DNA of 24,000 nt from assembly GCA_031366885.1 (NCBI GenBank), contig JANLPB010000098.1, positions 1 to 24,000 on the forward strand, written 5' to 3'. Below the pieces are notes generated by a model. The model was not told the DNA's origin, did not search any database, and saw only the letters and a program-made list of their open reading frames with translations. The DNA is from Ilumatobacteraceae bacterium. GTDB taxonomy: Bacteria > Actinomycetota > Acidimicrobiia > Acidimicrobiales > Ilumatobacteraceae. Positions 1-21,165 of this stretch are shown one piece after another (within the stretch, counting starts at the first letter, position 1; each line of letters opens with the position of its first letter). The position numbers and the translations under genes are program-made.

Positions 1-95
1 CAGCGCCGCCGTGGTCGACGCTGTCGTCCCCATCGTCGAGCGCCTTGCCGGCACCTGAAGTCCCTTCAACCTACGAGACCCGAAAGCAGCCACCT

Positions 96-2449: not shown

Positions 2450-3270
2450 TGGCGGGGACCAAGCTCCTCGGGAAGATTGCGGTTGTCACCGGGTCCAGCC
2501 GCGGCATCGGGCGAGGGACGGCCATCGCTCTCGGAGAGGAAGGGGCCACCGTCTACATCACAGGTCGCAGTACCGGCGACGGTGAACTCACCATCGAGCG
2601 GACCGCTGAACTGGTGGCGCAGGCCGGTGGTCGCGGTATTCCGGTGCCCACCGACCACGGCGACGACGCCCAGATCGAAGCCCTCTTCGATCGCGTGCGA
2701 GCCGACGAGGGCAAGCTCGACATCCTGGTCAACAACGTCTACAAGATTCCCAGCCCGCCCGCGTGGGGTGGCGGCTTCTGGGACCACCCGGTCTCTATTT
2801 GGGACGATCAGGTCGGCATCGGGCTTCGCGCGCACTACATCGCTTCGTGGCATGCGGCGCCGTTGCTGTTCGCCGCCGGGCCGGGCAGCTTCATCTGCAA
2901 CGTCTCGTCGCCGGGTGGCCAGAGCTACCACTTCAGTTCGTCGTACGGGGCAGGCAAGGCCGGCCTCGATCGGCTGGGCGCCGACATGGCGCTGGAGCTG
3001 GCGCCGAAGGGAATTGCCTGCGTCACCGTCTACCCCGGCACGGTCTCGACAGAGTTCATCGTCGAGGCGCGCGGCACCAGCTCGGCAGCGATGGACACCG
3101 CCCAGACACCATTGGTGGTCGGGCGCAGCATCGCAGTCCTCGCTTCCGCAGCCGACCTGATGGAACGGTCCGGGTCGATTCAGTGGGTGGAAGATTTGGG
3201 TCGCGAGTTCGGGCTCGTCGACGAGTTCGGGCGCGCGCCGGCTGCCTACCCGAAACGGTTGCCTCAGTAA
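2449..3270 (+). CDS. SDR-family short-chain dehydrogenase/reductase
   Basis: 273 aa. Rossmann motif 'VVTGSSRGIGRG', 'NNV' segment, and catalytic 'YGAGKAGLD' (YxxxK). The start overlaps the P450 stop by 1 nt. Confidence 0.88.
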   Translation: MAGTKLLGKIAVVTGSSRGIGRGTAIALGEEGATVYITGRSTGDGELTIERTAELVAQAGGRGIPVPTDHGDDAQIEALFDRVRADEGKLDILVNNVYKIPSPPAWGGGFWDHPVSIWDDQVGIGLRAHYIASWHAAPLLFAAGPGSFICNVSSPGGQSYHFSSSYGAGKAGLDRLGADMALELAPKGIACVTVYPGTVSTEFIVEARGTSSAAMDTAQTPLVVGRSIAVLASAADLMERSGSIQWVEDLGREFGLVDEFGRAPAAYPKRLPQ

Positions 3271-5609
3271 CTGCCTTCTTCGTGGCGGTCGACACCGAGC
3301 AGCTGCACCAGGTCTTCGTGTAGTTCCATCCACACGTCGTGGTAGCTGCCGCACATGACGCCCGTGAACATTCGCTGCTCGCCGCTTTCGAGCCGCACCA
3401 GGCTGGTGCTCAGTCGCCGGTCGTACGAAGCGAAGCGCGGGATCGCCTCGGCGAAGCCGGCGATCGGCGCCAAGGCCTGATCGTGCATTGCGCGCAGTTC
3501 GGCGACGCGGGCGCTGTCGTAGTCCGGGTCACTGTGGTCGTTGGGGTCGCCGTCGCGAATTTGCCACCGGTTGCATAGATCTTTGAACCCGACGTTGAGG
3601 TCGAGGAACTGCGGGTACGGCTCGCGCAGCCCGTCGACGGCGACACCGGAAACCTCCTGCAGCTTCTCGCCGTGGCGGTCGCGACCGAGGGGGGAGAGCT
3701 GCCACAGGTTGCGTGCGGCGACGTGGCGACACCATCCGGTCTCCACCATTCCCGACAGCATGTTCTCGACGATGGTTTGCTCCACGCCGGAGATCTCGGC
3801 GATCACTTCCACGGGCGCGTAGCCCTTGATGCGCAGCGCATGCATGACCAGGAATTCGGCGTCGCCATCGTCGCTGCGGATTGCGATGGCGGCGTCGGCT
3901 GACTCCAGCAGATCTTCGACGGCAGTTTGCTGCTCGATGGTTGGTGCGGCGCCGGCGGCAATGGCCGCCATCACGTCGTTGTTGACGCGGCTCATCTCGA
4001 GCAGCGCCTGGGCGACGGCGAGTCGTGCGATGGGCACCCGATACGGCGAGCAGCTGACGTAGTCGACCCCGCAGGCAACGAGGAACTTGGCCGATTCAGG
4101 GTCGCCGGCTTGTTCGCCGCAGACGCCGATCTTGATGGCGGCGTTGGCGTCGCGAGCATGCTCGCACGCATAGCGGATGAGGCGGCCAACACCGATCTGG
4201 TCGAGCGATTCGAACGGATCGCTCTGCAGCAGCCCGTGGCGCAGGTATTCGGGAATCAGTTTGCTGCCGACGTCGTCGCGGCTGAACGCGAACGTCAGCT
4301 GCGTGAGGTCGTTGGTGCCGAACGAGAAGAAGTCGCTCACCTCCGCCAGCTCACCGGCAACGAGCGCGGCTCGCGGTGTCTCCAACATCGCGCCCACGCT
4401 GACGGCACCTTCAAAGCCGACGGACGCAATGGCCTCGGCCACCCATGCCCGAGCCATGTGCATCTCGGTGGGGTCGATGACCAGTGGAATCATCACTTCC
4501 ACCTTTGGCGAGCGGCCCTGGGCCTGCACCGCGATGACCGCGTGCAGCAGCGCACGCACCTGCATTTGGTAGAGCCCTGGCTTGACCACACCCAGCCGCA
4601 CACCGCGGGTGCCGATCATCGGGTTCACCTCGTGCAACCGCCTGACGGCAGCCAACTCGAAACGGCCCTCGTCGTCCAGCTCGCCGAGTGCTTCTGCGAC
4701 AACCAGCCGTTCCAGCTCCGGCAGGAACTCGTGTAGTGGCGGGTCGAGCAGGCGAATCGTGATCGGCAGGCCATCCATCGCGGAGAGGATGCCCTCGAAG
4801 TCGGCCTGCTGCGCCGCCGCCAATTCAGTGAGCGCGTCGCGTTCCTCGCTCGGCACATCGCTGAGAATCAGCCGACGAACGAGCGGCAACCGGTCGTCGG
4901 CGAGGAACATGTGCTCGGTGCGACACAGCCCGATGCCCTCGGCACCCAGGTGGCGGGCGTGCGCTGCGTCGGCCGAGTTGTCGGCGTTGGCGCGCACCGC
5001 AACCGGTACGTCGGCTCCGGCGCGAATCTGGTCGGCCCAGTCGAGCAGGGTCTCCAATTCGGGCGGCGCTTCGGCGGTCGACGTGTCGGCGCGCCCGAGA
5101 AAGACCTCGCCCGTACGACCATCGATTGAAATCTGAGTGCCGGCCGTCAGCACCCTGTCGCCGATGCGGAGGCCCTCATCGTCGATGAGTATTTCGCCCG
5201 CCCCAACGACTGCCGGAATTCCCCAGCCACGAGCGACGACCGCAGCGTGACTGGTGATACCCCCGCGCGTCGTGAGAATGCCGCGTGCGGACTGCATGCC
5301 CAATACGTCGTCGGGCGTCGTCTCGTTGCGAACCAGGATCACCGGCCGCCCGGCGTCGGCAGCCTCGATGGCGTCCTCTGCGCTGAACGCAATCTCGCCC
5401 GCAGCTGCTCCTGGGGAGGCGCCCAACGCTGTTGTCAAGAGCGCCATCTCGTCGTTGCTGGCGAAGGTGGCGTGCAGGAACGCGCCAATGGCCCCAGCAG
5501 GTACCAGTGCGACCGCCTCGGCGATGGTGAGTGCGTCGTTGGGGTCACATGCGCGCCGGACCGCGCTCTGGATGATGGCGGCGAATGATTCGCCAGCGGT
5601 AGAACTCAT
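3264..5609 (-). CDS. pyruvate,phosphate dikinase-like PEP-utilising protein lacking the ATP-grasp domain, with a C-terminal extension of unknown function
   Basis: 781 aa.
- Swivel phosphohistidine motif 'TTRGGITSHAAVVARGWG' (His121).
- PEP/pyruvate TIM-barrel motifs 'GIGLCRTEHMF', 'IRLLDPPLHEF', 'FFSFGTNDLTQ' and 'VSCSPYRVPIARLA' (Cys520).
- The protein begins at the region that lies between the nucleotide-binding and His domains of full-length PPDK.
- The start is supported by SD 'AAGGGGA' 4 nt upstream of the ATG at 5609.
- Residues ~540-781 (nt ~3264-3992) extend beyond the PPDK fold. Confidence 0.85.
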   Translation of the reverse strand: MSSTAGESFAAIIQSAVRRACDPNDALTIAEAVALVPAGAIGAFLHATFASNDEMALLTTALGASPGAAAGEIAFSAEDAIEAADAGRPVILVRNETTPDDVLGMQSARGILTTRGGITSHAAVVARGWGIPAVVGAGEILIDDEGLRIGDRVLTAGTQISIDGRTGEVFLGRADTSTAEAPPELETLLDWADQIRAGADVPVAVRANADNSADAAHARHLGAEGIGLCRTEHMFLADDRLPLVRRLILSDVPSEERDALTELAAAQQADFEGILSAMDGLPITIRLLDPPLHEFLPELERLVVAEALGELDDEGRFELAAVRRLHEVNPMIGTRGVRLGVVKPGLYQMQVRALLHAVIAVQAQGRSPKVEVMIPLVIDPTEMHMARAWVAEAIASVGFEGAVSVGAMLETPRAALVAGELAEVSDFFSFGTNDLTQLTFAFSRDDVGSKLIPEYLRHGLLQSDPFESLDQIGVGRLIRYACEHARDANAAIKIGVCGEQAGDPESAKFLVACGVDYVSCSPYRVPIARLAVAQALLEMSRVNNDVMAAIAAGAAPTIEQQTAVEDLLESADAAIAIRSDDGDAEFLVMHALRIKGYAPVEVIAEISGVEQTIVENMLSGMVETGWCRHVAARNLWQLSPLGRDRHGEKLQEVSGVAVDGLREPYPQFLDLNVGFKDLCNRWQIRDGDPNDHSDPDYDSARVAELRAMHDQALAPIAGFAEAIPRFASYDRRLSTSLVRLESGEQRMFTGVMCGSYHDVWMELHEDLVQLLGVDRHEEGSY

Positions 5610-5745
5610 ACGGTCCCCTTTTTGATCATGTCCGGTTGCAAGCCCCCTGCTACCGCCACACCGTGTGTCGTACCCTACGCTTTACGAGTTACCTAAGCAT
5701 CGTACAGAAAGACGGAATCGGTCTGAATATGAGAGCGTGTACGAG

Positions 5746-7386
5746 ATGACCAACGCACGAGACACGTGGCAGCAGGCATTCGACGAATCGCGCATCCGCG
5801 ACGCCGACTACTCGACGATGTCGGGGGTGCCGCTCGCGGCGGTGTACGGCGCCGCCGATGGCACCGGCGACTACCCCGGCCAGTACCCCTACACTCGCGG
5901 GCCGTACGCCTCGATGTATCGATCGAAGCTGTGGACGATGCGTATGTTCGCCGGCTTCGGAACTGCCGACGACACCAACTGGCGCTTCAAGGAAATCATC
6001 AAGTCCGGTGGCGATGGGCTGTCGACCGCGTTCGACATGCCGACGCTGCTGGGCCTGGACTCTGATGACCCGATGTCATTGGGCGAGGTTGGGCGCTGCG
6101 GTGTCGCGATCGACACGCTCGCCGACATGGAAGATCTGTACGCAGGAATCGACCTTGGTGCCACCACCACCAGCATGACCATCAACTCGCCGGCCGCAGC
6201 CATCTTTGCCATGTTCATCGCGCAGGCGGAGAAGGCCGGCACCCCTCGTGCATTGCTGGGCGGCACGCTGCAGAACGACATCCTCAAGGAGTACCAAGCG
6301 CAGAAGGAGTTCGTCTTCCCGCCTCGCCAATCCATGCGGCTGGTGCGCGACACCATCTTGTACACGGCCGCGGAAATGCCGCGTTGGCACAGCGTGTCCA
6401 TCTCCGGCTATCACATCCGCGAGGCAGGGTCGACGGCGGCGGAAGAATTGGCGTTCACGTTGGCAAACGGCTTCGCCTACGTCGAGCTGGCGATGAAGGC
6501 AGGCCTGCCGATCGATTCATTCGCGCCGCGCTTGTCGTTCTTCTTCAATGCACACATCGACTTCTTCGAGGAGATCGCCAAGTACCGCGCCGCCCGTCGC
6601 ATCTGGGCGCGCTGGATGCGCGAACGGTACGGGGCGGTGGCTGAACGTTCGTTGCAGCTGCGGTTCCACACGCAGACCGCCGGTGTGTCGCTCACGGCAC
6701 AGCAGCCGGAAGTCAACATTGTGCGCACCGCTATCGAGGCGCTTGCCGGCGTGTTGGGTGGCACTCAGTCGTTGCACACCAACTCGATGGACGAGGCAAT
6801 GGCGTTGCCGACCGAGAAGTCGGCGCGCATCGCGCTGCGCACACAACAGGTCATTGCCTACGAAACCAACGTGGCCCACGTGGCCGATCCGCTGGGCGGC
6901 TCGTATTTCGTCGAAGCGCTCACCGACGAGATGGAGCGTCAGGCCGAGGAGCTGTTCGCCCACCTCGACGAACTGGGTGACGGCTCGATGTTGGAGGGGT
7001 GCATTCAAGGCATCGAGGACAACTGGTTCCAGGGCCGCATCGCCGATTCAGCGTTCGATCTGGAACGCAAGATGAATCGCGGCGAGCGGATCGTGGTCGG
7101 CGTCAACCGTTTCACCGAAGGCAACGACGAACAGTCGATGGACCTGCTGGAGATCACCAACGAGGACGAGGCCCGCCAGCTGAAGCGGCTCGACGTCGTG
7201 CGCCATCAGCGCAACGGTGCCGCGGTCGACGAAGTACTCGCCCGCCTCGCGGCGGAGGCCGCGGACCCGGAGATCAACCTGATGCCAACACTCATCGAGG
7301 CGGCCAGCGCCTATGCAACACTCGGCGAAATCATGGCCACCATGGGCACCGTGTTCGGTCGTCACGTCGAAGTGCCGGTGATCTGA
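5746..7386 (+). CDS. B12-dependent acyl-CoA mutase, large (substrate-binding) subunit, isobutyryl-CoA-mutase-like
   Basis: Taken from ORF 5665..7386. I prefer the ATG at 5746 ('MTNARDTWQQAFDESRIRDADYSTMSG') because it matches the usual mutase N-terminus. Motifs seen: 'YPYTRGPYASMYRSKLWTMRMFAGFG', 'GLSTAFDMPT', 'NDILKEYQAQKEFVFPP'. Phe and Gln sit where methylmalonyl-CoA mutase has Tyr and Arg. Confidence 0.9.
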   Translation: MTNARDTWQQAFDESRIRDADYSTMSGVPLAAVYGAADGTGDYPGQYPYTRGPYASMYRSKLWTMRMFAGFGTADDTNWRFKEIIKSGGDGLSTAFDMPTLLGLDSDDPMSLGEVGRCGVAIDTLADMEDLYAGIDLGATTTSMTINSPAAAIFAMFIAQAEKAGTPRALLGGTLQNDILKEYQAQKEFVFPPRQSMRLVRDTILYTAAEMPRWHSVSISGYHIREAGSTAAEELAFTLANGFAYVELAMKAGLPIDSFAPRLSFFFNAHIDFFEEIAKYRAARRIWARWMRERYGAVAERSLQLRFHTQTAGVSLTAQQPEVNIVRTAIEALAGVLGGTQSLHTNSMDEAMALPTEKSARIALRTQQVIAYETNVAHVADPLGGSYFVEALTDEMERQAEELFAHLDELGDGSMLEGCIQGIEDNWFQGRIADSAFDLERKMNRGERIVVGVNRFTEGNDEQSMDLLEITNEDEARQLKRLDVVRHQRNGAAVDEVLARLAAEAADPEINLMPTLIEAASAYATLGEIMATMGTVFGRHVEVPVI

Positions 7387-7790
7387 TGACCGAGCGAATT
7401 CTTATCGGCAAGGTCGGCCTCGACGGCCACGATCGCGGGGTCAAAGTCGTCGCCCGAATCCTTCGCGACGCAGGCTTCGAAGTCATCTACACCGGGCTTT
7501 TCCAAACGCCGGCGACGATGGCCGCGGCTGCCGTCGATGAAGACGTCGACCTGGTCGGGCTGTCCATGCTGTCGGGTGCTCACATGACGCTCGCCCCGGC
7601 TGTCGTCGAGGCCATGCGCGCCGCCGGCTGTCACGCTCCCGTCGTTGTCGGCGGCATCATCCCTCAGCAGCACATTGAGCGCCTCACCGCGGCTGGTGTC
7701 GCGGCGGTGCTCACCCCCGGTGCCCCCGCCGACCAAGTGGTGGCAGTCATCAGATCCGTGCTCGACGCAGCGGCCGCCACATCGGCCTAA
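7386..7790 (+). CDS. acyl-CoA mutase small subunit (cobalamin-binding domain)
   Basis: In frame within ORF 6999..7790. The ATG at 7386 overlaps the large-subunit stop (TGATG). The DxHxxG motif is present in 'GLDGHDRGVKVV', together with 'GLSMLSGAH' and 'VVVGGIIP'. Product is 134 aa. Confidence 0.88.
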   Translation: MTERILIGKVGLDGHDRGVKVVARILRDAGFEVIYTGLFQTPATMAAAAVDEDVDLVGLSMLSGAHMTLAPAVVEAMRAAGCHAPVVVGGIIPQQHIERLTAAGVAAVLTPGAPADQVVAVIRSVLDAAAATSA

Positions 7791-7878: not shown

Positions 7879-9393
7879 TCACAGTTCGCCGCGGTCGAGC
7901 CTGGCGAGGATGTCGACGGCGTGACTTCGGACGGCCCGCAAGTTGCTCAGCGCGCGCATGGCCGCCAGCGCGCGGGCCATACGGTGATTCGAGGCAAGTG
8001 CGTCGGCGTTGCGGGCGAGAAAGTCCCAGTACAGAGTCGTATAGGGGCAGGCCTTTGGGCCGACCCGTAGCTTCGGGTCGAAGCGGCATCCGCGGCACGA
8101 ATCGCTCATCTTGTTGATGTAGGCGCCGCCGGAGGCGTACGGCTTGGTGGCCATCATGCCCCCATCGGCGAACAGGGCCATCCCCACGACATTCGGCAAC
8201 ATCACCCAGTCGGCACCGTCGACGAAGCTCGCTCGCATCCACTCCGTCATCGCCGCTGGGTCGACACCTGCCGTCAACGCAAGGTTGCCGAGCACCATCA
8301 ATCGCTCGATGTGATGCGCATACCCGTGATCGTCGACGTGCCCGATCACGCTGGCAACGCAGGCCATCTCCGTGGTCGCCTGGCCGGTGAACGCAGGCGG
8401 AACCGGGCGCGTGGCGCCGAGCGCGTTGCTCGCTCGGTACTCGGGCATCCACAGCCAATAGACACCCCACACGTACTCGCGCCATCCGATCACCTGCCGG
8501 ATGAAACCCTCGACCGAGCTCAGTGGAGCATCGTCGCGACGATAGGCCGCCTCGGCTGCGTCGACGATCTCGGTCGGGTGCAACAGGCCCAAGTTCATCG
8601 ACGAGGCCAGCACCGAGTGAGCGAGCTTCCACTCGGAGGTGAGCATCGCGTCCTCGTGCGGGCCGAAGGCCGCGAGGCCGCGGTCGATGAACTCGGTGAG
8701 TCGCGTCATCGCCTGCGCTCGTGTGACCGGCCACGTCCCGTCAGGGTCAGCGCCGAAGGTCGCCGCGGGAAGCCGGTCGACGACGGAGCGGTCGATGTCG
8801 TCGAGGTCGAACAGCTCGATCTGCGGCCAGGCGCGGCCATCTCTGGGCGGCGGTTCGCGATTGTCGTGGTCGAAGTTCCACCTGCCCCCGACGGGCTCTG
8901 GGCCGGCGATGCCTTCCTCGACGAGGACGCCCAGACGTTGGCGCTGCCAGCGGTAGAAGTCCTCCATCGTCAGCCGCTTGCGCCCGGATGCCCAACCCGC
9001 GAAATCGTCGTAGTGGCACAGGAACAGGTCGTTGCGGACCAGTTCGACTCCCAACCGTTCGAGCATCACGCGCCCGTCCCAGCTGCTCGGTTCCATGGCG
9101 ATGATCCGACGGACACCACATTCGTCCACGTGCTCGCGGAGGCCTTGCTCAAGTGTGCGGGCGTGTCGGTAGTCGACCTCGAAACCTTCGGTGCGCAGTT
9201 CCGCCGCAAAGTGGAGCATCGCTGACAGCACTATGTGCAACCGCTGACGATGCCATCGCCGCGAGTTGGTGAGCCGTTCGCTCTCGACCAGCAGTACGCG
9301 ACACTCACCCGGCATCATGCTGGCCAGGGCTCCGCGGGCGCGGTCCAGTTGGTCGCCAAGAACCCAAACGGTGGGGATCGAGGCAGCGGCCAC
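7879..9393 (-). CDS. cryptochrome/photolyase-family protein, Fe-S bacterial type (FeS-BCP / PhrB-CryB-like, COG3046)
   Basis: Taken from ORF 7879..9486.
- The N-terminus 'TVWVLGDQL' and 'MEDFYRWQRQR' are typical of photolyase-related COG3046 proteins.
- Four cysteines are spaced as in the [4Fe-4S] site: 'EMACV' and 'MSDSCRGCRFDPKLRVGPKACPYTTLYWDF'.
- The start is uncertain. GTG at 9393 gives a family-typical short N-terminus. GTG at 9486 would overlap the upstream SDR by 56 nt. Confidence 0.85.
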   Translation of the reverse strand: MAAASIPTVWVLGDQLDRARGALASMMPGECRVLLVESERLTNSRRWHRQRLHIVLSAMLHFAAELRTEGFEVDYRHARTLEQGLREHVDECGVRRIIAMEPSSWDGRVMLERLGVELVRNDLFLCHYDDFAGWASGRKRLTMEDFYRWQRQRLGVLVEEGIAGPEPVGGRWNFDHDNREPPPRDGRAWPQIELFDLDDIDRSVVDRLPAATFGADPDGTWPVTRAQAMTRLTEFIDRGLAAFGPHEDAMLTSEWKLAHSVLASSMNLGLLHPTEIVDAAEAAYRRDDAPLSSVEGFIRQVIGWREYVWGVYWLWMPEYRASNALGATRPVPPAFTGQATTEMACVASVIGHVDDHGYAHHIERLMVLGNLALTAGVDPAAMTEWMRASFVDGADWVMLPNVVGMALFADGGMMATKPYASGGAYINKMSDSCRGCRFDPKLRVGPKACPYTTLYWDFLARNADALASNHRMARALAAMRALSNLRAVRSHAVDILARLDRGEL

Positions 9394-9430
9394 TACGCCA
9401 GTGTGCCGTTCGCAGCGTGGTACGGCCGCA

Positions 9431-10138
9431 TCACGACGTGAACGCCATGCTTGGCAGGTCGGCGGTGCCGGCCTCCAGTGCGTCACAGATCACCGTTGCA
9501 ACGTGCTCGGGCGAGATGCCCGCTGGCATGCGCGGTGCGACACCAGCCACCGGGTGATCGGCCAGCCCGGTCTCGGTGTGTGGCGGGCGGGCATCGAGCA
9601 CCCGAACATTGCGCCGCCGGGCTTCGCGAGCGAGAGCCTGGTCGAACGATCGGACCGCTGCCTTCGAGGCACCGTATGCGGCCATGCCGGGGAGGTTCGT
9701 TTCGGCGATCACCCCCGAGATGTTGACGATCGCCCCGTTGGGTCGCAGCACCGGAAGCGAGGCGCGAGCGAGCATGATCGGCAGGAACGTGTTGGTCAGG
9801 AACAGCTCTTCCATCGTGTCGACCGACAGCTCGTCGACGGTTCCGAACGCCACCACACCAACCGCGTTGACCACGACGTCGAGGTGGCCGCAGTGATCGA
9901 CCGCCGCCGCCACCGCGGCGGCGCACGCCTCCGGGGAACGCAGATCGAGCGCGGCGCGCGCGCCGGCAAGTTCCAGCGCACGCAGCCGTTCAGCATCACG
10001 CGACACCAGTGTGAGAGCGGCGCCGCGGCGGGTCATCTCGGCGCCGATCGCGCGGCCCAGTCCGCCGGTCGCTCCCGCGAGAAGCACCGACGCGCCGGCA
10101 AGGGGGAATGAACTTGGTTTGTCCTGCGTTGGTGCCAT
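9431..10138 (-). CDS. SDR-family oxidoreductase
   Basis: 235 aa. Motifs 'VLLAGATGGLGRAIG' (TGxxxGxG), 'NAVG' and 'YGASKAAV' (YxxxK). It lies directly upstream of the photolyase-like gene on the same strand. Confidence 0.85.
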   Translation of the reverse strand: MAPTQDKPSSFPLAGASVLLAGATGGLGRAIGAEMTRRGAALTLVSRDAERLRALELAGARAALDLRSPEACAAAVAAAVDHCGHLDVVVNAVGVVAFGTVDELSVDTMEELFLTNTFLPIMLARASLPVLRPNGAIVNISGVIAETNLPGMAAYGASKAAVRSFDQALAREARRRNVRVLDARPPHTETGLADHPVAGVAPRMPAGISPEHVATVICDALEAGTADLPSMAFTS

Positions 10139-10163
10139 TAGTGCTAAAACTACCGGGTCTTCG

Positions 10164-11690
10164 ATGAACGTTTCACAACCAGCGCCGGTACTCGGCGTTC
10201 AGCCCGGAAGTCTTGTTCTGGTCACGGGTGGCAGCGGCTACGTGGGTGGCCGGTTGGTGACGGTGTTGCTCGAGCGCGGGTATCGCGTGCGGTGTCTGGT
10301 GCGCACGCCCGCGAAGGTGCGCTCGGCTCCGTGGCACAGCTCCGTCGAGATCGTGCAGGGTGATGTCGGTGGCGATCTCGGCGAAGCCCTGCAAGGGGTC
10401 GATGCCGCGTTCTATCTGGTGCACTCCATCGGCTCGTCCGCCGATTGGGCCGAGCACGACCGAGCAGTTGCGGAGAACTTTCGGCGCTCTGCAGAGTTGG
10501 CGGGTGTGCAGCGGATCATCTACCTCGGTGGGCTCGGTGACCACTCCTCGGGTCACCTCAGCGAACACCTCGCGAGCCGTCAAGAGGTGGGCGCCGAACT
10601 TGCCAAGGGTTCGGTGCCCGTGGTCGAGTTGCGTGCTGCGGTTGTCATCGGGTCAGGTTCGGCAAGCTTCGAGATGCTGCGCTACCTCGTCGAAGTACTT
10701 CCCGCCATGGTCACGCCGCGTTGGGTGGATACTCGTTGCCAACCGGTCGCTGTCCGCGACGTGTTGCACTTCCTCGTCGAGTCGCTGACCGCAGACGTCA
10801 CCCATCGCGTCCTCGATGTGGGCGGCCCCGAGGTGTTGACGTATCGCGAGATGATGGCTCAGTACGCGCAGGTCGCCGGTCTACGGCGCAGGCTTGTCGT
10901 GCCGGTGCCGTTCCTGACGCCAGGGTTGTCGTCGCGTTGGATCGGTCTCGTGACGCCGATCCCGCCGCTACTCGCACGCCCTCTCATTCAAAGCCTCGTG
11001 AACGACGTCGTTGTCACGGGCGACGCGGCCGCTGACGCGATGCCCATCGAGCAGCTCAGCTATCGCGAGGCGGTGGAGCTGGCATTGGGTAATGCGATCA
11101 GCGGCGACGTGGCGACCAGTTGGGCACACGCCGCGCTCGGCGGACGCCCGCCGGCTGAGCCGCAGCCCACCGACCCGGCGTGGTCCGGTGGCACGGTCAA
11201 CCTTGACCGGCGCGAGCGGCATGCCGCAGCGTCCCCCGCAGAGCTGTTCCAAGTGGTCTGCTCGATCGGCGGTCGACAGGGCTGGTATGCGGGCGACTGG
11301 CTATGGACGCTGCGCGGGCTTCTTGACTCATTGATTGGCGGTGTCGGTATGCGACGCGGACGACTCCACCCGCATCAGTTGTCGACCGGTGATCCGCTCG
11401 ACTTCTGGAGGGTCGAGGCGTTGGCTCCGAACAGCCTGCTACGGCTGCGCGCCGAGATGCGACTTCCCGGGGACGCGTGGTTGCAGTGGCAGATCGAGCC
11501 CGGCGCCAACGGTGCCACCATCACGCAGACCGCGCGATTCCATCCGCGCGGCCTACTCGGCCGCCTCTACTGGATCGCGGTCGCGCCCTTCCACCGGTTC
11601 ATCTTCCCCGGCCTGCTTGCCGGCATCTGCGCTGACGCAGAACGGCTGCACTCGTTCGTCAATGCGCAGCGTGGCGAAGGGATTCGGTGA
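10164..11690 (+). CDS. NmrA-like/atypical-SDR NAD(P)-binding domain fused to a DUF2867 domain
   Basis: Taken from ORF 10011..11690. I prefer the ATG at 10164 ('MNVSQPAPVLGVQPGSLVLVTGGSGYVGGRLV'); the upstream part of the ORF is antisense to the SDR. The C-terminal ~150 aa ('FWRVEALAPNSLLRLRAEMRLPGDAWLQWQIEP...ARFHPRGLLGRLYW') resemble DUF2867 as I remember it. Confidence 0.8.
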   Translation: MNVSQPAPVLGVQPGSLVLVTGGSGYVGGRLVTVLLERGYRVRCLVRTPAKVRSAPWHSSVEIVQGDVGGDLGEALQGVDAAFYLVHSIGSSADWAEHDRAVAENFRRSAELAGVQRIIYLGGLGDHSSGHLSEHLASRQEVGAELAKGSVPVVELRAAVVIGSGSASFEMLRYLVEVLPAMVTPRWVDTRCQPVAVRDVLHFLVESLTADVTHRVLDVGGPEVLTYREMMAQYAQVAGLRRRLVVPVPFLTPGLSSRWIGLVTPIPPLLARPLIQSLVNDVVVTGDAAADAMPIEQLSYREAVELALGNAISGDVATSWAHAALGGRPPAEPQPTDPAWSGGTVNLDRRERHAAASPAELFQVVCSIGGRQGWYAGDWLWTLRGLLDSLIGGVGMRRGRLHPHQLSTGDPLDFWRVEALAPNSLLRLRAEMRLPGDAWLQWQIEPGANGATITQTARFHPRGLLGRLYWIAVAPFHRFIFPGLLAGICADAERLHSFVNAQRGEGIR

Positions 11691-11833
11691 GGGTGTCACT
11701 GCACGCTGGGTGGGCCTGATGAATCCTGAAGAGTGGCTGCCACATGATCAGTCAATCAGACCCGACGAGTGTCGAGCTCGGCCATGCTCGCATCGCCGAC
11801 CCGATTTATGCTCACCTGACCCAGCCCGCGACC

Positions 11834-11839
11834 AGGAGA
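11834..11839 (+). promoter_or_regulatory. Shine-Dalgarno sequence (AGGAGA) of the heliorhodopsin gene
   Basis: AGGAGA lies 7 nt upstream of the ATG at 11847. Confidence 0.6.
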
Positions 11840-11846
11840 GCCACCA

Positions 11847-12656
11847 ATGACCGACACTGCGGCGCCGCAACCGAACTCAGTGAGCAGTGTCTCGACCCTG
11901 GCCTCGGGCGTCACGCCCGAGCGTCTCGCTGGCCTTCGGAAGTGGAACCTCGGCCTCAGCGTGGTGCATGCAGCGCAGGCAGTGCTCATCCTCGTGATGT
12001 CGAGTTCCTTCGCCATCACTGTCACGTCCACCTTTCCTCAAGGACCCCCCGGCACTCGTTTGACGACGCCTGAGGGACTGCTCGACGTCGCCATCGGCCC
12101 AGCAATTGCAGTCTTTCTGCTGCTGGCTGCATTCGACCATTTCGCCACCGCGACATTCGCTCGTATCACCTATGAGCACGACCTGCGGCGGGGCATCAAC
12201 CGGTTCCGGTGGGTGGAGTACTCGCTCAGCGCCACCCTGATGATTCTGCTGATCGGGTTCTACAGCGGCATCACCGACATCACCGGAATCATCGTCATCG
12301 CCGGGGCGAACGTCGCCATGATCCTGTTCGGCTGGTTGCAGGAGCGAATGAACCCGCCCGGGCGCACCACGACGACGATGATGCCGTTCTGGTTCGGCAC
12401 CGTCGCCGGTATTGCCCCCTGGGTGGCCATCTGGGTCAACGTGATCGGTGCTCCCAAGGTGCCGGGTTTCGTGTACGGCATCGTGATCGCCGAGCTGATC
12501 TTCTTCTTCAGCTTCGGCCTCAACCAGTGGCTGCAGTACCGGGGAGTTGGCCGCTGGCGCGACTACGCCTACGGCGAGAAGACGTACTTGGTGCTCAGTC
12601 TGGTGGCGAAGTCCGTGCTCGCCTGGCAGATCTACGGCGGGTCACTGGCCACCTGA
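11847..12656 (+). CDS. heliorhodopsin (retinal-binding 7-TM photoreceptor protein)
   Basis: 269 aa with seven hydrophobic segments. Family-specific motifs are collinear with heliorhodopsin 48C12 as I recall it:
- 'VVHAAQ' (His41)
- 'AAFDHF' (His98)
- 'FRWVEYSLS' (Glu124, counterion position)
- 'ILFGWLQE', 'PFWFG' and 'VPGFVYGI'
- 'LVLSLVAKSVLAWQIYGGSL' (Lys255, codon AAG at 12609-12611, Schiff-base lysine position). Confidence 0.9.
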   Translation: MTDTAAPQPNSVSSVSTLASGVTPERLAGLRKWNLGLSVVHAAQAVLILVMSSSFAITVTSTFPQGPPGTRLTTPEGLLDVAIGPAIAVFLLLAAFDHFATATFARITYEHDLRRGINRFRWVEYSLSATLMILLIGFYSGITDITGIIVIAGANVAMILFGWLQERMNPPGRTTTTMMPFWFGTVAGIAPWVAIWVNVIGAPKVPGFVYGIVIAELIFFFSFGLNQWLQYRGVGRWRDYAYGEKTYLVLSLVAKSVLAWQIYGGSLAT

Positions 12657-12700
12657 TCGCTGGCCGCTTGTTCCAAGCGAGCGGAGCAGCAGGTTGATCC

Positions 12701-12841
12701 TCAGACGGGATTGGTGTGGCTGGCTGCGTCTTCGGATCGATCGGCCCAGCGGCCGAAGCTCAGCATCGCGTACAGAAATCCGCCGGTGAACACGACGATG
12801 GTCACGAGCGCACCGGCGATGAAGACGCCTGTCTCGGTCAC
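12701..12841 (-). CDS. small single-TM membrane protein (46 aa), hypothetical
   Basis: Absent from the supplied ORF track because it is under 60 aa. Reverse-strand translation from GTG (12841) gives 'VTETGVFIAGALVTIVVFTGGFLYAMLSFGRWADRSEDAASHTNPV*', with the stop at 12701-12703. Its GTG overlaps the stop of the upstream small ORF (GTGA, 12838-12841), which suggests translational coupling. Confidence 0.35.
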   Translation of the reverse strand: MTETGVFIAGALVTIVVFTGGFLYAMLSFGRWADRSEDAASHTNPV

Positions 12842-13032
12842 TTCGACGGCCGCCGGTGAGCGAGCACGAACGAACCGAGAGCCAAAATCGACGGCACCCA
12901 GATGCCGACGAAGATGCCATTGAGGCGGCCGTTCACCTCGTCGCCTGCCTGGAAGTAGATGATGACGCTCAGCAGGAAGCTGGCAAAGGCGGCAGCGAGA
13001 AACGTGCCCTTGAGGATTCGTTCAGGGTTCAT
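12838..13032 (-). CDS. small two-TM membrane protein (64 aa), hypothetical
   Basis: Taken from ORF 12838..13071. I prefer the ATG at 13032, giving 'MNPERILKGTFLAAAFASFLLSVIIYFQAGDEVNGRLNGIFVGIWVPSILALGSFVLAHRRPSK'. There are two clear hydrophobic helices. I recognise no family. Confidence 0.5.
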   Translation of the reverse strand: MNPERILKGTFLAAAFASFLLSVIIYFQAGDEVNGRLNGIFVGIWVPSILALGSFVLAHRRPSK

Positions 13033-13109
13033 GCTGACGATGGTCCCATCGTTCGCACACAAAGACCTCACCCTGGTCGAGGTCTTCGTGAGCGATCGAA
13101 GCCGCCCGT

Positions 13110-13152
13110 GATTGCACCCGGGAGGACCTGATGGTCCACCCGGGATGCAATC
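13110..13152 (-). terminator. long stem-loop immediately downstream of the 1208-aa gene (putative intrinsic terminator without a U-tract)
   Basis: GATTGCA-CCCGGG-A-GGACC (13110-13128), loop TGAT, then GGTCC-A-CCCGGG-A-TGCAATC (13133-13152). That gives 18 bp of pairing with one A/A mismatch and one bulged A. It starts 5 nt beyond the stop at 13157. Confidence 0.4.
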
Positions 13153-13156
13153 CGCC

Positions 13157-16100
13157 CTACTTCTTGCCGGTGCCGCCCTTCATCACGAGCGTTGCCGCGT
13201 TGGTGTTGTTTGCCACTACCGGGTCTGGCGTCGACGTCGTGGCCGTGGCTGTGTTCAGGATTGTTCCAACGCTGCCGTTGGCCTGGGCCTCGATCACGAA
13301 TGTGACGGTTGCGCCGGCCGGCAGATTCAAGGCAGTGCATCGGACTTGATGGGTTGCTTTGGTGTAGGTGCACTGCGGCGACACGTACTGCACGACGATC
13401 TTCTTCGGGTCGAGGGGCAGCTTGTCGATGACGACGATGTCCCTGGCGTCGGACGGGCCACCGTTGCCGCAGTTTGGTGAGACGGTGGACTGAGCATCGG
13501 TTTCGCAGCCGGCATCATTGTGGACGATCAACGTGTAGACGATGACCGGGCTCGGATTACCGGAGCGCTGGCTGGCCGTCTTGTCGAGCCAGATGTCGCT
13601 GCTCGTGTCGACGTTGGTTGAGCTGGTCGCCGAGTTGTTGCTCGTGTCCGGGTCGGGTGTCGTCGAGCTCACGGTCACGGTGTTCTGCAGCACCGTGGTG
13701 TCGGGCAGCGACGCGGTGACCTTCACGGTGATGAACACCGTCACCGACGCAAACGGCTGCAAGGTTCCGAGGTTGCAGACCACGGTCGCCGCCTGGTTCA
13801 GCGTGCACACCGTGTTGCCGTTGCCGTCCTTTCCGCTGACAAACGTGGTGCCTGCGGTCAGCGGATCGCTGATCGCCACGTTCTGAGCGGTCGAGGGGCC
13901 GGCGTTGGTCACGGTGATCGTGTACGTCAGCTGGTTCCCGGCAATCACCGGTTCGGGTGCAGCGGTCTTCGTGACGCCCAGGTTGGCCGATGCAGACACG
14001 ACGGTGTTGACGCTCATGCGGTTGTTCGCATTCGACGGGTCGGCCGTGTCGCTCGTTACCTGAGCTTCGTTGAACAGTGACGTTCCCGACGCCACACTTG
14101 GGTCGACGAGCGCGACAACCGTGATCGTCGCACCAGCGCCCGACGCGAGATTGCCGAGCCCGCAGCGCAGGCCGCGGTTGCCGGGTTGACCGTTGATACA
14201 CGTCCCGGCGGTCGTGGTCGCCGACACGAAGGTGAGGCCGAGCGGCAAGGTGTCGGTCACGACCGTCCCAACCGCCGTTGACGGGCCTCCATTAGCCACC
14301 GTGATCGTGTACGTCATCTGCGTACCGGCCACCACCGTGGCGGGACCAGTCTTGGTGAGCGACAGGTCGGCCGAGCCGAGGAACGTGACGCGACCGGTCG
14401 CTTGGTTGTTGGCCGTGATCGGATCCGGCGTCAGGCTCGACACCGTCGCAACGTCGTTGATCTGGGCAACGTCGGCTGCGGTGACGTCGACGTGTACTGT
14501 CGTGCGGCCAGCAGCCGGCTCGGTGCCAAGATCGCAGGTGATCGACACCGTGGTCGCAGGCCCGGCTGCCAATGGTGCACACGTGCCGCCGGCGACCGTG
14601 ACGCCAGTGACGCTGAACGGTGACGCCGACGTCAGTACGTCGGTGAGTGTCACGCTGCGGGCGTCTGAGGGGCCGAGGTTGTCGACGTGGATGTCGCAGA
14701 ATCCAGTGGTGCCCGCGGCGGCCGGAAGGTCCGGCTTGCAGATCTTCGTCACCATCAAGTCGGCGCGATCCTGCACGATCGTGCCGAGCGTGAAGGTGTT
14801 GTTGTTGGTGTTGGTGTCGTTGTCGCCAGCGACCGTCACCGTGTTGTACATCGTGATCGCGGCCGCGCTGCCAAGGATGCTGGGGCTCACATGCACCTGG
14901 ATCGTGAATGTCGTCGACGCAGATGCGGCCAGGTTTCCGACGTTGCACGTCAGCGTGCCCACCGGACCCTGCACACATGGAATGGTCGACGTGACGAACG
15001 TGACTCCCGCCGGCAGCACGTCAGTGACGGTCGCGTTGAAGACGGTGCCGGGACCATTGTTGGTTGCGGTGATGTCGTAGTACAGCTCGCCACCGGCGAT
15101 GGCCGGGTCCGGCCGCGATGTCTTGCTGATGCGCAGATCGCCACCGTTGACGATCGGTGCCTCGAGTCGGTCGTAGTAGACGTCGAGATCGAGGCGTCCC
15201 GTCGGGGCTGGGTAGGCCGTCGTGTTGATCGAACGCCGGCCGTCACCCCACAGGTAATGGAAGCTGGCTGCATCGCCCGCGGCCGCGAGGTACTCGCCGA
15301 AGTAGCACTGCGCCGTTCCCGGGTTGTAATGCGGGAACAGTGGCGGGACGCCCGCCGTCACGTCGCTGACACGAATGTTCGCGCCGTAGGTCACGCCACC
15401 ATCGGTGGAGAATGCGGTGTACACGTCGGTATTGGTGTTGCCCGGGTTGTCGTTGCGTTTGTCGTACCAGGCGACGGCGACAACCCCCGTTGGTGACACT
15501 GTGATGAACGGATTGAACTCGTCGAGGTTGTTCGCCGGCACGCCCATCTGTTGCGCGTTGACCCAGCTTGCCCCACCGTTGATCGATCGGGCCACGAGCA
15601 CATCTGAGCGGTCCGCAGCGTTTGCCGGGTTCTCCATCCACGCCGCGTAGAGGTTGCCGTTGTTCGCTCCGCCCGATGTATCCACAGCCAGCCACGCGCC
15701 GTGGAGCATGCGGATATTGCCGTTGAGAATCGGTCGGCTGTTGTTGTTGCCGCAGTTGTTCGCGGCAGTCACGTCGCCGGCCTGAGCTGCTGCCGCGTCG
15801 ATGTCAACGATTCCGCCGAAGGTGAGGCCACCGTCGACGGAGCGGATGAACTCGATCTGCCCTGCAGCGCGGTTGGCGTACGCGATGTTGATGTCACCGG
15901 TTGGCCCGACCTGGATGCTGCACCCGAACGGGCTCGATCCGGTGGGCACGATGACCTGCTCGCCGATGAATGTCGCGCCATTGTCGTTCGACCGGCTGAA
16001 CCGCATCTCGCTGGTTCCGGTCGCGGTGTTGCCGGGCGTCGTCTGGAAGAACCGTGTCCAGCACACGTAGACGTCGCCGTCATTGGCGCCGCCGGTGTTG

Positions 16101-16783
16101 TCGACTGCAACCCAGGGCTTGTCGTTGAGGGTCGTCCCGGCCAGGCCCGACGCCACAGGAGAGGCGTTCGTGGCCGCGGCAAACGTCTGGCAACCATCCG
16201 TCGAACGGGCGATGCCGATCGATGGATTGGCTCCGGTCGTACCGATTTCGCCGTAGTAAAAGTCGCCGGTAGTGATATGCGCGGCGATGACCGGGTCGCC
16301 GCTCCCGCCAATGCCGTCGAGGTCGGTCCACGTCTGGCCGGTGTTGGCCGACACCGCGTGGCCGGAGAGCCCGCCTGCCGTGAAATCGTTGTATCCGGCG
16401 CACACGACGCTGCCGTTGACGGCGAGCGCTGCCTCACTTTGTGTGGTGTTGTCGGTGGCGAGGTTGTCGTCGGCTGGGTCGTTCACCATCACGTCCGCGC
16501 CGAACACAGGGTCACCCGCGGCATTCGGCTGCTCGGCGGTGCGCGCGGCGGGTGCGGTAGATGTTCCGTTCAACGCGGCCGGCGCGTCGACGAGGCCGGC
16601 CATCTGAAGCAGGAGATGTTCACCGGCAGCCGACGGAGCCTCGTTCGGTGGATACTGGCCAAGAATGTCGCCAACGGGATCTGACTTTGCTTCAGCGCTG
16701 GGCGGGCCGCCGATCATCAGAACTCCCAGTAGAAGCGGCAGCGTAAGGCTTCTCATCGTCCGTTCGAGCTTGGTTCGACGCAT
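13157..16783 (-). CDS. large secreted protein: signal peptide, six-Asp-box (BNR/sialidase-like) beta-propeller and five DUF11 repeat domains
   Basis: 1208 aa.
- SD 'AAGGGGA' lies upstream of the ATG at 16783.
- Signal peptide: '[32 protein letters not shown]'.
- Six Asp-boxes: SANTGQTW (aa 145), STDGCQTF (194), SNDNGATF (265), SVDGGLTF (315), SINGGASW (400), STDGGVTY (459).
- Five repeats of the DUF11 pattern follow, for example '[48 protein letters not shown]'. Confidence 0.9.
   Translation of the reverse strand: [1208 protein letters not shown]
13184..15142 (-). repeat. five tandem ~128-aa DUF11-type domain repeats (protein level) within the 1208-aa gene
   Basis: Approximate repeat boundaries are aa 548-674, 675-804, 805-933, 934-1062 and 1063-1200. 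Each repeat has 'L..(T/S)K' plus 'Y.I.V.N.GPS.A..V.V.D.LP.G..FV', a conserved Cys...Cys pair, and a terminal '(T)PDP..(A/S)NN' motif. The DNA copies have diverged, and I saw no exact nucleotide repeats. Confidence 0.7.
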
Positions 16784-16819
16784 CTCAGTTCCCCTTAGAA
16801 AGTCTGATCCCAGTGAGGT

Positions 16820-17467
16820 TCAGTTCGTGGTGCAATCCATGTTCTCGAGCAGGTCTGCGACCTCGGCTCGTCGTTGTTCCGCCATTTCGATCGTCGTGGT
16901 AACGACGATCGAGATCTCTGCCCGCACGTCACCCATCTGGGTGTAGGCGAGCTGTCGCTCAGGCGCTCCTGGCAGGCTCAGAACCATGCAGGTGCCGTAG
17001 TCAGCCGACTGCCAATCTTTCTGTTCGCGTTGCGTCAGCCATTGCTCGAGGCTGAGATCGTCGGTTCGATTGATGGTGCAAATCTGAACGGCTGCGCGTG
17101 CGAGCGCGGCCGAGCCAGCATCCGATGGAGACGGGTCATCGATGACCTCTGCAGCCATACAATTGTCGGCAGTGCCCTGAAATTCTGTGCCGATAACCGC
17201 AGTGTTCTCGGACGTCCAGCCGGCTGGAACGGAGAACCCAATACCGCCGATCGCGACAAGGGTGGTGACCGCGGCGACGGTTGTGGTTGAGGTTGACGAG
17301 GCGTCAGCGTGCAAGGTTGTGGAGGTGTCGCCCGCTGCGTCAGGCTCGGTGCCCGAGCCGCACTCCACCAGCACCGAGATCGCGGCGAGAGTCCCTGCCG
17401 CACGCATCAACAAGGCGCGTCGTGGCAGTGCGCAGACTACGTTTCGAGCCCCAACCCCACTTCCCAT
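16820..17467 (-). CDS. secreted or membrane-anchored protein of unknown function, Thr/Ser-rich linker
   Basis: Taken from ORF 16820..17518. The ATG at 17467 gives 'MGSGVGARNVVCALPRRALLMRAAGTLAAISVLVECGSG', with an RR-containing n-region, a hydrophobic core and a Cys. This is followed by 'TSTTLHADASSTSTTTVAAVTT' and a globular domain containing 'FSVPAGW'. The gene ends 36 nt upstream of the 1208-aa gene on the same strand, so the two are probably co-transcribed. The start is uncertain (17518, 17467 or 17407). Confidence 0.6.
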   Translation of the reverse strand: MGSGVGARNVVCALPRRALLMRAAGTLAAISVLVECGSGTEPDAAGDTSTTLHADASSTSTTTVAAVTTLVAIGGIGFSVPAGWTSENTAVIGTEFQGTADNCMAAEVIDDPSPSDAGSAALARAAVQICTINRTDDLSLEQWLTQREQKDWQSADYGTCMVLSLPGAPERQLAYTQMGDVRAEISIVVTTTIEMAEQRRAEVADLLENMDCTTN

Positions 17468-17706
17468 CCCACTAAAGTCCCAACTTCCCCCGCGTCGATC
17501 ATGAGCCGCGGGTGGCAAGGAAGCAAGAGGAAGTTCGCGCGGAACACTCAGTGACGGACTGTGCGGTCAGCGTGAGTTGTTAGGGTCAGTTGGCCCTATT
17601 GGCACCCCTCAACTCTGCGCACGATGCGTCCATGAGCCAGGACCGGCAAGGTCCAAGAATCATGGTCTCCGCAGTTGATACCGAGTCCGCGAATGCCGAC
17701 CAGCAG

Positions 17707-18033
17707 ATGATCGCGCGACAGCGTCCGCGGGTTTCACGGCGCGCGCTCACGTTCATCGGCGCGCTTGGCCTCGTTGGGCTGGCGATTGCCGGCTGCGCCT
17801 CGGACTCCAGCAACGCCCTCGGTGGAAAGGGGCCATACGGCGTCGCGCCGCCTGGTGGAAGTGCCGTCAACGGCTTGCTCGACGAGTGGCACGTGCGTGC
17901 CGACGCCAGCAACGTGCACGCCGGCCCGGTTACGTTCACCGTCTCGAACACGGGAACGATCATCCACGAAATGCTCGTGACCCGAACCGACATCGAGCCT
18001 GGCAAGATCCCGTCGCGAAAAGACCCCAGCTGA
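17707..18033 (+). CDS. short lipoprotein with an N-terminal cupredoxin-like segment, possibly a truncated gene
   Basis: Taken from ORF 17590..18033. The ATG at 17707 gives a textbook lipoprotein signal, 'MIARQRPRVSRRALTFIGALGLVGLAIAGCAS'. The mature part, 'EWHVRADASNVHAGPVTFTVSNTGTIIHEMLV', resembles the first strands of a cupredoxin-like domain. The ORF stops before the Cys/His/Met ligand region expected in full-length relatives. Alternative upstream starts are 17590, 17632 and 17662. Confidence 0.45.
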   Translation: MIARQRPRVSRRALTFIGALGLVGLAIAGCASDSSNALGGKGPYGVAPPGGSAVNGLLDEWHVRADASNVHAGPVTFTVSNTGTIIHEMLVTRTDIEPGKIPSRKDPS

Positions 18034-18042
18034 GCTGGGGTC
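18018..18042 (-). terminator. rho-independent terminator of tRNA-Leu
   Basis: The perfect 9-bp stem GACCCCAGC (18022-18030) pairs with GCTGGGGTC (18034-18042) across a 3-nt loop. On the minus strand it is followed by TTTT (18021-18018). It starts 7 nt beyond the tRNA 3' end. The loop is the TGA stop codon of the plus-strand ORF. Confidence 0.55.
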
Positions 18043-18048
18043 TTCAAG

Positions 18049-18131
18049 TGGGCGAGGGGGGACTTGAACCCCCACATCCTTTCGAATACTAGCACCTGAA
18101 GCTAGCGCGTCTGCCATTTCGCCACTCGCCC
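18049..18131 (-). tRNA. tRNA-Leu(CAG): tRNA-Leu (anticodon CAG)
   Basis: The reverse complement folds as a class II tRNA. Acceptor GGGCGAG/CTCGCCC, anticodon stem CTAGC/GCTAG with loop TTCAGGT, a long variable arm, and T-arm GGGGG-TTCAAGT-CCCCC. Discriminator is A and no CCA is encoded. Length 83 nt. Confidence 0.93.
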
Positions 18132-19049: not shown

Positions 19050-19105
19050 GAGGGGAGAATAGCTACCCGTCGGTAACTTCGGCGAAACGAGTACCTTGGC
19101 AGGCG

Positions 19106-20223: not shown

Positions 20224-20234
20224 TCGCTGGACAG

Positions 20235-21062: not shown

Positions 21063-21165
21063 GGCGGAACCCTACGCAGCGCAGGTAAGGGCAGGGTTGC
21101 AATCGTGGGTCGAAATCGGAACTTGACCGGGGCTTGATGTGTCCGCTGCCGAAGCTGTTTGCAGT

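Follow-up and report, generated by a model that had tools for sequence, protein, structure and literature searches.

We analyzed a 24,000-nt stretch of DNA from an Ilumatobacteraceae bacterium (contig JANLPB010000098.1, positions 1 to 24,000; hereafter, the window), in which a heliorhodopsin gene (HeR) lies close to three other genes: a photolyase-like gene of the iron-sulfur bacterial cryptochrome/photolyase type (FeS-BCP; hereafter, BCP), a gene for a classical short-chain dehydrogenase/reductase (SDR), and a gene that we term FUS, which encodes an NmrA/NDUFA9-like domain fused to a DUF2867 domain (YbjT family). Comparative sequence analysis indicates that the conserved unit at this locus is a putative two-gene FUS-HeR operon, found in one subclade of Ilumatobacteraceae-type Acidimicrobiia, and that FUS, more than the photolyase, is the best candidate for a partner of HeR. 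The initial annotation of the window had joined all four genes into a putative light-related module centered on HeR and BCP. The identities and positions that it gave to these genes agreed with our profile, structure-homologue and motif evidence, and FUS proved to be tightly coupled to HeR (the two genes overlap in 15 of 15 relatives), but no more than about half of the informative loci contain the BCP-SDR pair. While "light-damage neighbourhood" is a fair description of the region, direct control of the Fe-S photolyase by HeR is without specific support.

FUS and HeR form a conserved gene pair within one heliorhodopsin subclade

Searching with the window proteins, we compared 80 species-level HeR loci (HeR identity of 67-98%), 27 FUS loci and 13 further contexts, and defined the HeR subclade of the window on a neighbour-joining tree, which placed ~64 of the 80 loci outside it. 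FUS was found directly upstream of HeR in 16 lineages, i.e., in the window and in 15 others (L002, L003, L005, L006, L008, L009, L012, L015, L017, L082, L083, L086, L087, L095 and L098). Moreover, a metagenome scan with FUS recovered nine orthologues of at least 84% identity, eight of which have HeR immediately downstream.

The surroundings of the pair differ from locus to locus. Depending on the locus, FUS is preceded by an SDR, BCP, an esterase (itself located behind a run of acyl-CoA dehydrogenase, methyltransferase and SDR genes), KatG, adenosine deaminase or ferredoxin gene, and the genes downstream of HeR vary among the FUS-HeR loci as well. The order of the pair is reversed (HeR>FUS) in L018 and L051, with spacers shorter than 35 nt: L018, a member of the subclade, reads SDR< HeR> FUS>, and in L051 an HeR of a different clade is followed ~14 nt later by an 86%-identical FUS. 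When the two proteins were compared across the same loci, FUS was the more conserved one (85-90% identity, versus 78-89% for HeR).

Outside the subclade, neither BCP nor SDR lies beside HeR in any of the ~64 loci, and FUS does so in one (L051). BCP or a distant FUS-like gene was encountered 5-8 kb from HeR in L042, L072 and L037, a co-occurrence at about chance level, and an 83%-identical HeR (L001) adjoins a Liv-type ABC transporter. The adjacency of FUS or BCP to HeR is confined to one HeR subclade, and is general neither to HeR nor to the HeRs of Ilumatobacteraceae. An adjacency beyond what chance would give is thus shown for this one clade only.

The FUS-HeR junction is an overlap that an insertion has disrupted in the window

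In all 15 FUS>HeR loci other than the window, the stop codon of FUS overlaps the start of HeR, by 4 nt (ATGA-type) in 14 of them and by 16 nt in L083, and independent gene calls agree on this overlap (FUS 4001-5581, HeR 5578-6384). A GGAG-type Shine-Dalgarno sequence is located inside the poorly conserved tail of FUS. Since this start/stop overlap normally couples the two genes translationally, FUS and HeR would be made together.

The window is the exception to this pattern. As the initial annotation had it, HeR begins exactly 156 nt downstream of FUS on the same strand; this gap is seen in the window only and derives from an insertion. Aligning the DNA of 15 junctions revealed ~105 extra nucleotides (~11678-11782) that place a TGA (11688-11690) in frame with FUS and alter the reading frame, thereby truncating the FUS tail, generating the 156-nt spacer and breaking the coupling. 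The ancestral tail can still be read in the +1 frame, where an open reading frame (11335..11850) ends with PARDQESHQ and a stop codon at the HeR start + 3, and this relic retains both an SD-like GGAGAG (11835-11840) and the ATGA overlap with HeR. No sequence similar to the insertion was detected in any fetched locus and no Rfam family matched it, nor did the spacer contain a terminator-like site. The 156-nt gap of the window is a derived state, or possibly an assembly artefact.

FUS combines a non-classical SDR-like domain with a putative ligand-binding domain

The open reading frame of FUS opens at 10011, its likely start is the ATG at 10164 (a position common to L086), and it ends at 11690. 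Its product matches NAD_binding_10 (58 bits) and NmrA (44 bits), and its C-terminal part matches DUF2867 (PF11066, 127 bits); homologues are named "YbjT (DUF2867 family)" by JGI. Two motifs are invariant among the 120 listed FUS homologues: the dinucleotide-binding motif GxSGYVG, and LSxHLxSR (120/120), which places His and Arg at the positions of the SDR catalytic Tyr and Lys. The canonical YxxxK active site of SDRs was accordingly not found in FUS, which has HLxSR instead.

An AlphaFold2 model of FUS (pLDDT of 80.7) presents a Rossmann N-domain followed by a disordered linker at residues 317-345. The best matches among solved structures were NDUFA9 (the 39-kDa subunit of complex I, 9g83_P, E 2.5e-17), the NmrA-like protein HSCARG and the ketoreductase SimC7; this whole-chain search was dominated by the N-domain and gave no dedicated fold match for the DUF2867 domain. 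The C-domain displays the order β-α-α-β4-long-α, which is typical of helix-grip/SRPBCC proteins, and weak PF10604 matches in homologues agree with it. Judging by this order of secondary structures and by the PF10604 matches, the DUF2867 domain is predicted to adopt a helix-grip fold, which would be suitable for binding a hydrophobic ligand. Domain matches, homologue names, conserved motifs, the structural model and the fold matches are all concordant on the nature of FUS. Both NDUFA9 and NmrA belong to the non-classical SDRs, bind nucleotides and exert their function by docking to other proteins, which fits a partner role for FUS. As for YbjT itself, we know of no function for it.

The heliorhodopsin gene

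HeR scored far above the thresholds of both PF18761 (318.6 bits, against a gathering cut-off of 26.7) and the NCBIfam HeR equivalog NF038020 (270.4 bits, against a cut-off of 100). In its alignment to 48C12 (224 bits), the Schiff-base Lys of TM7 (SLVAKS), the Glu counterion (WVEYS) and two His residues (VVHAAQ and FDHFA) are matched, the corresponding residues of 48C12 being K241, E107, H23 and H80. Homology searching returned 6796 HeR homologues, the closest of which are named as Ilumatobacteraceae/Acidimicrobiales HeR, in agreement with a freshwater-type Acidimicrobiia metagenome-assembled genome as the source of the window.

A single Ilumatobacteraceae metagenome-assembled genome can contain two HeR paralogues whose genomic surroundings differ (L051 and L077 in JBGTIA01; L020 and L024 in REDU01), and only one paralogue type is linked to FUS in these genomes. 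Of note, a gene of the MPAB_Lcp_cat family (DUF2236, rubber-oxygenase-like) is convergent to HeR in two loci (L004:10862-11794 and L006:4297-5229), and in L116/L117:5090-6004 it lies directly upstream of, and overlaps, a BCP homologue. This isoprenoid-cleaving oxygenase family, which recurs beside opsin and photolyase genes, may be a candidate source of retinal.

BCP and SDR accompany the pair in part of the subclade

The longest open reading frame of BCP extends to 9486, and its start was placed at 9393 by a 100%-identical 504-aa database protein (P0241). In a profile search, BCP matched the DPRP N-terminal domain PF04244 (175 bits), and it is similar to PhrB 4DJA (401 bits, 4.9e-119, residues 40-532) and to CryB 3ZXS (376 bits). 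The four-Cys signature that the initial annotation had read as a [4Fe-4S] site (EMACV, SCRGC and KACPY) indeed aligns to the cluster ligands C350, C438, C441 and C454 of PhrB, and the pattern is kept in 120/120 listed BCP homologues. The catalytic His pair (H365/H366 in PhrB) is conserved as well. At the position aligned to W342 of PhrB, presumably an electron-transfer Trp, no Trp was found in BCP or in its 120 closest homologues, the alignment having an indel at this point; the region reads PPAFTGQATTEMAC in BCP, and a PPAFTG motif is conserved there in the BCP clade. The absence of a Trp at the W342 position suggests a photoreduction path different from that of PhrB.

The SDR gene shares the strand of BCP and precedes it, its overlap with the BCP start being given as 39 nt (SDR stop 9431, BCP start 9393). 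It matches adh_short (121.6 bits), and the classical SDR motifs GATGGLG, NAVG and S...YGASK (the Ser-Tyr-Lys triad) can be read in its translation. Orthologues of 74-87% identity occupy the same position in L004, L006, L008, L009, L012 and L086.

The complete arrangement, BCP<SDR<FUS>HeR>, occurs in the window, L002, L006, L008, L009 and L086, and partial forms exist as BCP<FUS>HeR> (L083), BCP<SDR<HeR> (L004) and SDR<FUS>HeR> (L012). Both BCP and SDR are lacking in L003, L005, L015, L017 and L082. Moreover, the pair is pseudogenised or reduced to remnants in four loci: the SDR is fragmented in L002 and survives as a 26-aa remnant in L087, whereas BCP has been truncated in L008 and carries a frameshift in L121. 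Seven FUS-containing lineages have BCP in divergent orientation to FUS. In two loci without HeR and with no SDR nearby, FUS (85-86% identity) stands tail-to-tail with BCP (79-80%; L114:6001-9065 and L121:5001-8061). With two different gene arrangements joining BCP to FUS, FUS appears to be the hub of these associations. At 72-74% identity, BCP homologues are surrounded by unrelated genes.

Further neighbours of FUS and BCP relate to oxidative stress. A KatG-type catalase-peroxidase gene is located directly upstream of FUS in L017 (6121-8334), and KatG and Fur genes lie a few kb from the BCP homologue in L116/L117 (1-2127), in keeping with an oxidative-stress setting. A more distant FUS homologue (65% identity) is the last gene of an Amino_oxidase-DUF1365-CMAS-SDR operon (L113:1624-7518); in Rhodobacter, a gene set of the Amino_oxidase-DUF1365-CMAS kind (UfaD/UfaO-type) has been shown to produce furan fatty acids, which act as scavengers of singlet oxygen (PMC7380195). 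Our literature search found no main text combining DUF1365 with a photolyase.

Organization of the window

The features discussed above are collected in the table below.

Table. Positions of the heliorhodopsin gene, its neighbours and the traces of the insertion in the window.
Feature	Position	Strand	Basis
BCP, FeS-BCP / CryPro-type (6-4) photolyase-like, 504 aa	7879..9393	-	PF04244; PhrB/CryB similarity; P0241
Classical SDR, 235 aa	9431..10138	-	adh_short 121.6 bits; motifs in translation
FUS	10164..11690	+	NAD_binding_10, NmrA and DUF2867 matches; C-terminal tail truncated relative to orthologues
Window-specific insertion, ~105 nt	11678..11782	+	DNA alignment of 15 junctions
Relic of ancestral FUS 3' tail, +1 frame	11813..11850	+	ORF 11335..11850; tail resembling L002, L008 and L082
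HeR, 269 aa	11847..12656	+	PF18761; NF038020; alignment to 48C12

FUS and SDR are divergent in the window, and their starts, on opposite strands, are only ~25 nt apart (10138-10164), with a similar spacing in L086; their promoters must therefore overlap coding sequence, or else the transcripts are leaderless. A scan of this divergent region for σ70-type promoters gave nothing useful. Neither was a shared operator found, the upstream sequences belonging to at least two unrelated types.

To the left of BCP (3-3267 and 3264-7790), the window contains genes for a luciferase-like monooxygenase, a P450 and an SDR. After these come a PEP-utilising enzyme of 781 aa, whose C-terminal extension is long, and the large and B12-binding subunits of methylmalonyl-CoA mutase. 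None of these left-flank genes recurs in synteny at a related HeR locus. With the left-flank genes (methylmalonyl-CoA mutase and the PEP-utilising enzyme) as tblastn queries, no syntenic match was found in the 80 HeR loci, and on this ground general synteny was set aside as the sole explanation of the conserved neighbourhood.

To the right, ~5.4 kb (12700-18131) separate HeR from a tRNA-Leu(CAG) gene (18048-18131, - strand) and contain a 77-aa ORF, a gene for a 1208-aa secreted DUF11-repeat/BNR-like protein (13157-16783) and a 147-aa ORF. In L118 and L012, tRNA-Leu follows HeR directly or one gene later. The 12700-18131 segment resembles an island that has integrated on the 3' side of tRNA-Leu, although no integrase was seen. 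Beyond it lies a block of genes (18201-21594) for a 3-hydroxyacyl-CoA dehydrogenase (3HCDH), HD_3, DUF2017-like, DegV and 4HBT thioesterase proteins, which adjoins HeR downstream in L005/L118 and L012 and is displaced by 5.4 kb in the window. Given that this block, too, is conserved near HeR, the conservation of BCP-SDR stands only moderately above background synteny. DegV is also a recurrent HeR neighbour in Chloroflexi and Clostridium (supplement of PMC11109279).

Interpretation and alternative explanations

On the sequence evidence, we see an even chance that FUS is the partner or effector of this HeR subfamily, coupling light to an NAD(P)(H) function on a hydrophobic ligand as part of a response to UV or photo-oxidative stress. 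FUS would then be a cytoplasmic or peripheral-membrane protein, and the light state of HeR would modulate an activity of FUS that depends on, or senses, NAD(P)(H) and that would act on a hydrophobic, probably membrane-derived ligand and serve in protection against UV/photo-oxidative stress. The divergent SDR-BCP pair may represent the photorepair unit of the same ancestral neighbourhood, dispensable in many lineages and tied to FUS, not to HeR itself. A more specific version, which we put forward tentatively and consider rather doubtful, is a stoichiometric, light-responsive complex of HeR with a YbjT-type NDUFA9-like/START-like protein, which would couple light both to NAD(P)(H) status and to how a membrane-lipid, quinone or oxidised-lipid ligand is handled, the Fe-S photolyase having been recruited to the same stress island. 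If true, this would be the first function shared by HeR and the orphan YbjT/DUF2867 family.

Several observations weigh against a FUS-HeR partnership. Four members of the subclade (L004, L007, L013 and L022) are without FUS, relaxed tblastn detected no FUS remnants in them, and in L007 only a short pre-ATG tail survives. Conversely, three FUS orthologues have no HeR (L088, L114 and L121), and the same is true of FUS homologues at 78% identity or below (L109-L113 and L089-L094; those at 78, 74, 70, 65 and <=58% were checked). The ~64 other HeR loci show no association. The FUS-HeR association goes back to a single ancestral pairing and two or three later rearrangements, and with so few independent events the lineage counts overstate independence. 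Furthermore, many organisms that lack rhodopsins have members of the YbjT family, and its core function therefore cannot depend on HeR. Lastly, the coupling is disrupted and FUS truncated in the window itself, where the function may be impaired, or the insertion could be an assembly artefact.

The same limited spread is what one would expect if nothing more than synteny had been inherited, i.e., if the arrangement of a recent common ancestor had persisted near a tRNA-Leu integration hotspot with no functional coupling. The association is indeed limited to a single subclade whose HeRs are 78-89% identical, the 3HCDH-HD_3-DUF2017-DegV-4HBT block is likewise partly conserved near HeR (L005, L012 and the window), and BCP and SDR are decaying. 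We nevertheless hold this explanation to be improbable, since the start/stop overlap is kept in 15/15 relatives, both flanks turn over around an intact FUS-HeR pair, two reorderings leave FUS and HeR adjacent and co-oriented (one of them with an HeR of another clade), and FUS is more conserved than HeR in the same loci. The decay of BCP and SDR also bears on a reading along the lines of the initial annotation, whereby all four genes would make up one photosensory or photoprotective module, with the Fe-S (6-4) photolyase under the physical control of HeR and the oxidoreductases as accessories. This proposal would build on the analogy of TfHeR and its CPD-II photolyase, for an interaction between HeR and a photolyase of another class is published (PMC9769723), and the four-gene order recurs in the window and five further loci, with related forms in L083 and L004. 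However, BCP is on the opposite strand, at a distance of two genes from HeR; L003, L005, L015, L017 and L082 lack it, and its copies in L008 (truncated) and L121 (frameshifted) are defective; the SDR is broken up in L002 and all but gone in L087; BCP homologues at 72-74% identity keep other company; BCP accompanies FUS even without HeR (L114 and L121); and no actinobacterial or Fe-S example is among the published HeR operons with a photolyase. A module of all four genes appears, on balance, unlikely.

A different role for FUS itself would be to serve the chromophore, as a retinol/retinal oxidoreductase or as a retinal chaperone with a helix-grip pocket that handles retinoids or carotenoids and is made stoichiometrically with the opsin. 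Such a role would suit a protein that joins a Rossmann NAD(P) domain to a hydrophobic-ligand fold and is translationally coupled to an opsin; moreover, independent HeR-SDR operons exist in Rhodococcus and Nocardioides, and no retinal-synthesis gene was seen in the window. Yet the catalytic Tyr and Lys of SDRs are replaced by His and Arg throughout the 120 listed FUS homologues, bacteria without rhodopsins commonly possess YbjT-family proteins, FUS orthologues are retained where HeR is missing (L088, L114 and L121), and the associations of FUS with BCP, KatG and a furan-fatty-acid-type cluster point to stress lipids and not to retinoids. We give this role little credence, and the reading of FUS as a light-controlled partner of HeR in photo-oxidative stress is the one that we favour.

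Comparison with known systems

The few known cases of HeR function consist of a light-dependent modulation of an adjacently encoded enzyme or transporter; besides photolyase, the published operon cases include glutamine synthetase and the OmrDE ABC transporter. As a candidate HeR partner, FUS has better comparative-genomic support than most, namely its coupling, its survival of rearrangements and the reciprocal adjacency of the two genes, and it belongs to a family (YbjT/DUF2867) that is widespread and without known function. Attention accordingly shifts from the Fe-S photolyase to FUS, the gene that is co-inherited with the opsin.

HeRs have been described to bind and modulate the products of their operon neighbours (PMC11109279; PMC9769723), an HeR-partner operon being defined by a common strand and a single promoter (PMC11109279). 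In these operons, HeR has the same orientation as the gene of a soluble or peripheral enzyme-like protein and is evidently expressed together with it; the FUS-HeR loci share the orientation and, probably, the joint expression. The published partner groups include NAD(P)-binding oxidoreductases, "SDR family oxidoreductase" being one of the HeR-neighbour groups (PMC11109279), and at the window locus a photolyase lies nearby as well. In the published HeR-SDR operons of Rhodococcus and Nocardioides, a classical SDR is encoded downstream of helR (PMC11109279), whereas the partner here is a YbjT-type fusion of an NDUFA9/NmrA-like domain with DUF2867, encoded upstream of it. As for photolyases, the published HeR-photolyase pair involves a class II CPD (cyclobutane pyrimidine dimer) photolyase in Trichococcus (PMC9769723), in line with the remark in the initial annotation that it was not of the Fe-S type, and the photolyase group of HeR operons is restricted to Firmicutes and Chloroflexi, with no actinobacterial or Fe-S-type case (PMC11109279). 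The photolyase-like gene at our loci is of the Fe-S bacterial type, is encoded on the opposite strand and occurs inconsistently. DUF2867 has been published near helR at a single locus, in Anaerolineales, with the order DUF2867-DUF2177-helR (PMC11109279); a literature search found no main text treating heliorhodopsin and DUF2867 together. Bulzu et al. stress the presence of oxidative-stress genes near HeRs, which fits the context at these loci.

The individual proteins have their own known relatives. Going by the JGI names, the domain architecture of FUS is identical to that of E. coli YbjT, and its N-domain fold is nearest to NDUFA9, NmrA and HSCARG, with which it shares atypical-SDR features; what sets it apart from YbjT, NDUFA9 and NmrA is that its lineage is operonic with a rhodopsin and that His and Arg replace the SDR Tyr and Lys. 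BCP shares full-length similarity, the four [4Fe-4S] Cys and the His-His pair with PhrB of A. fabrum (4DJA) and CryB of R. sphaeroides (3ZXS), but differs from PhrB in having the PPAFTG motif in place of a Trp at the W342-equivalent position, and its (6-4) repair activity is putative. The L113 operon resembles in composition the RSP1091-1087 cluster of R. sphaeroides (UfaD/UfaO; PMC7380195), with the protection of membranes against photo-oxidation as the common theme, although the window has no Ufa-type genes and is linked to this cluster only through the more distant FUS homologue. Taken together, these comparisons place the FUS-HeR pair as a further variant on the published operons of HeR with a partner enzyme.

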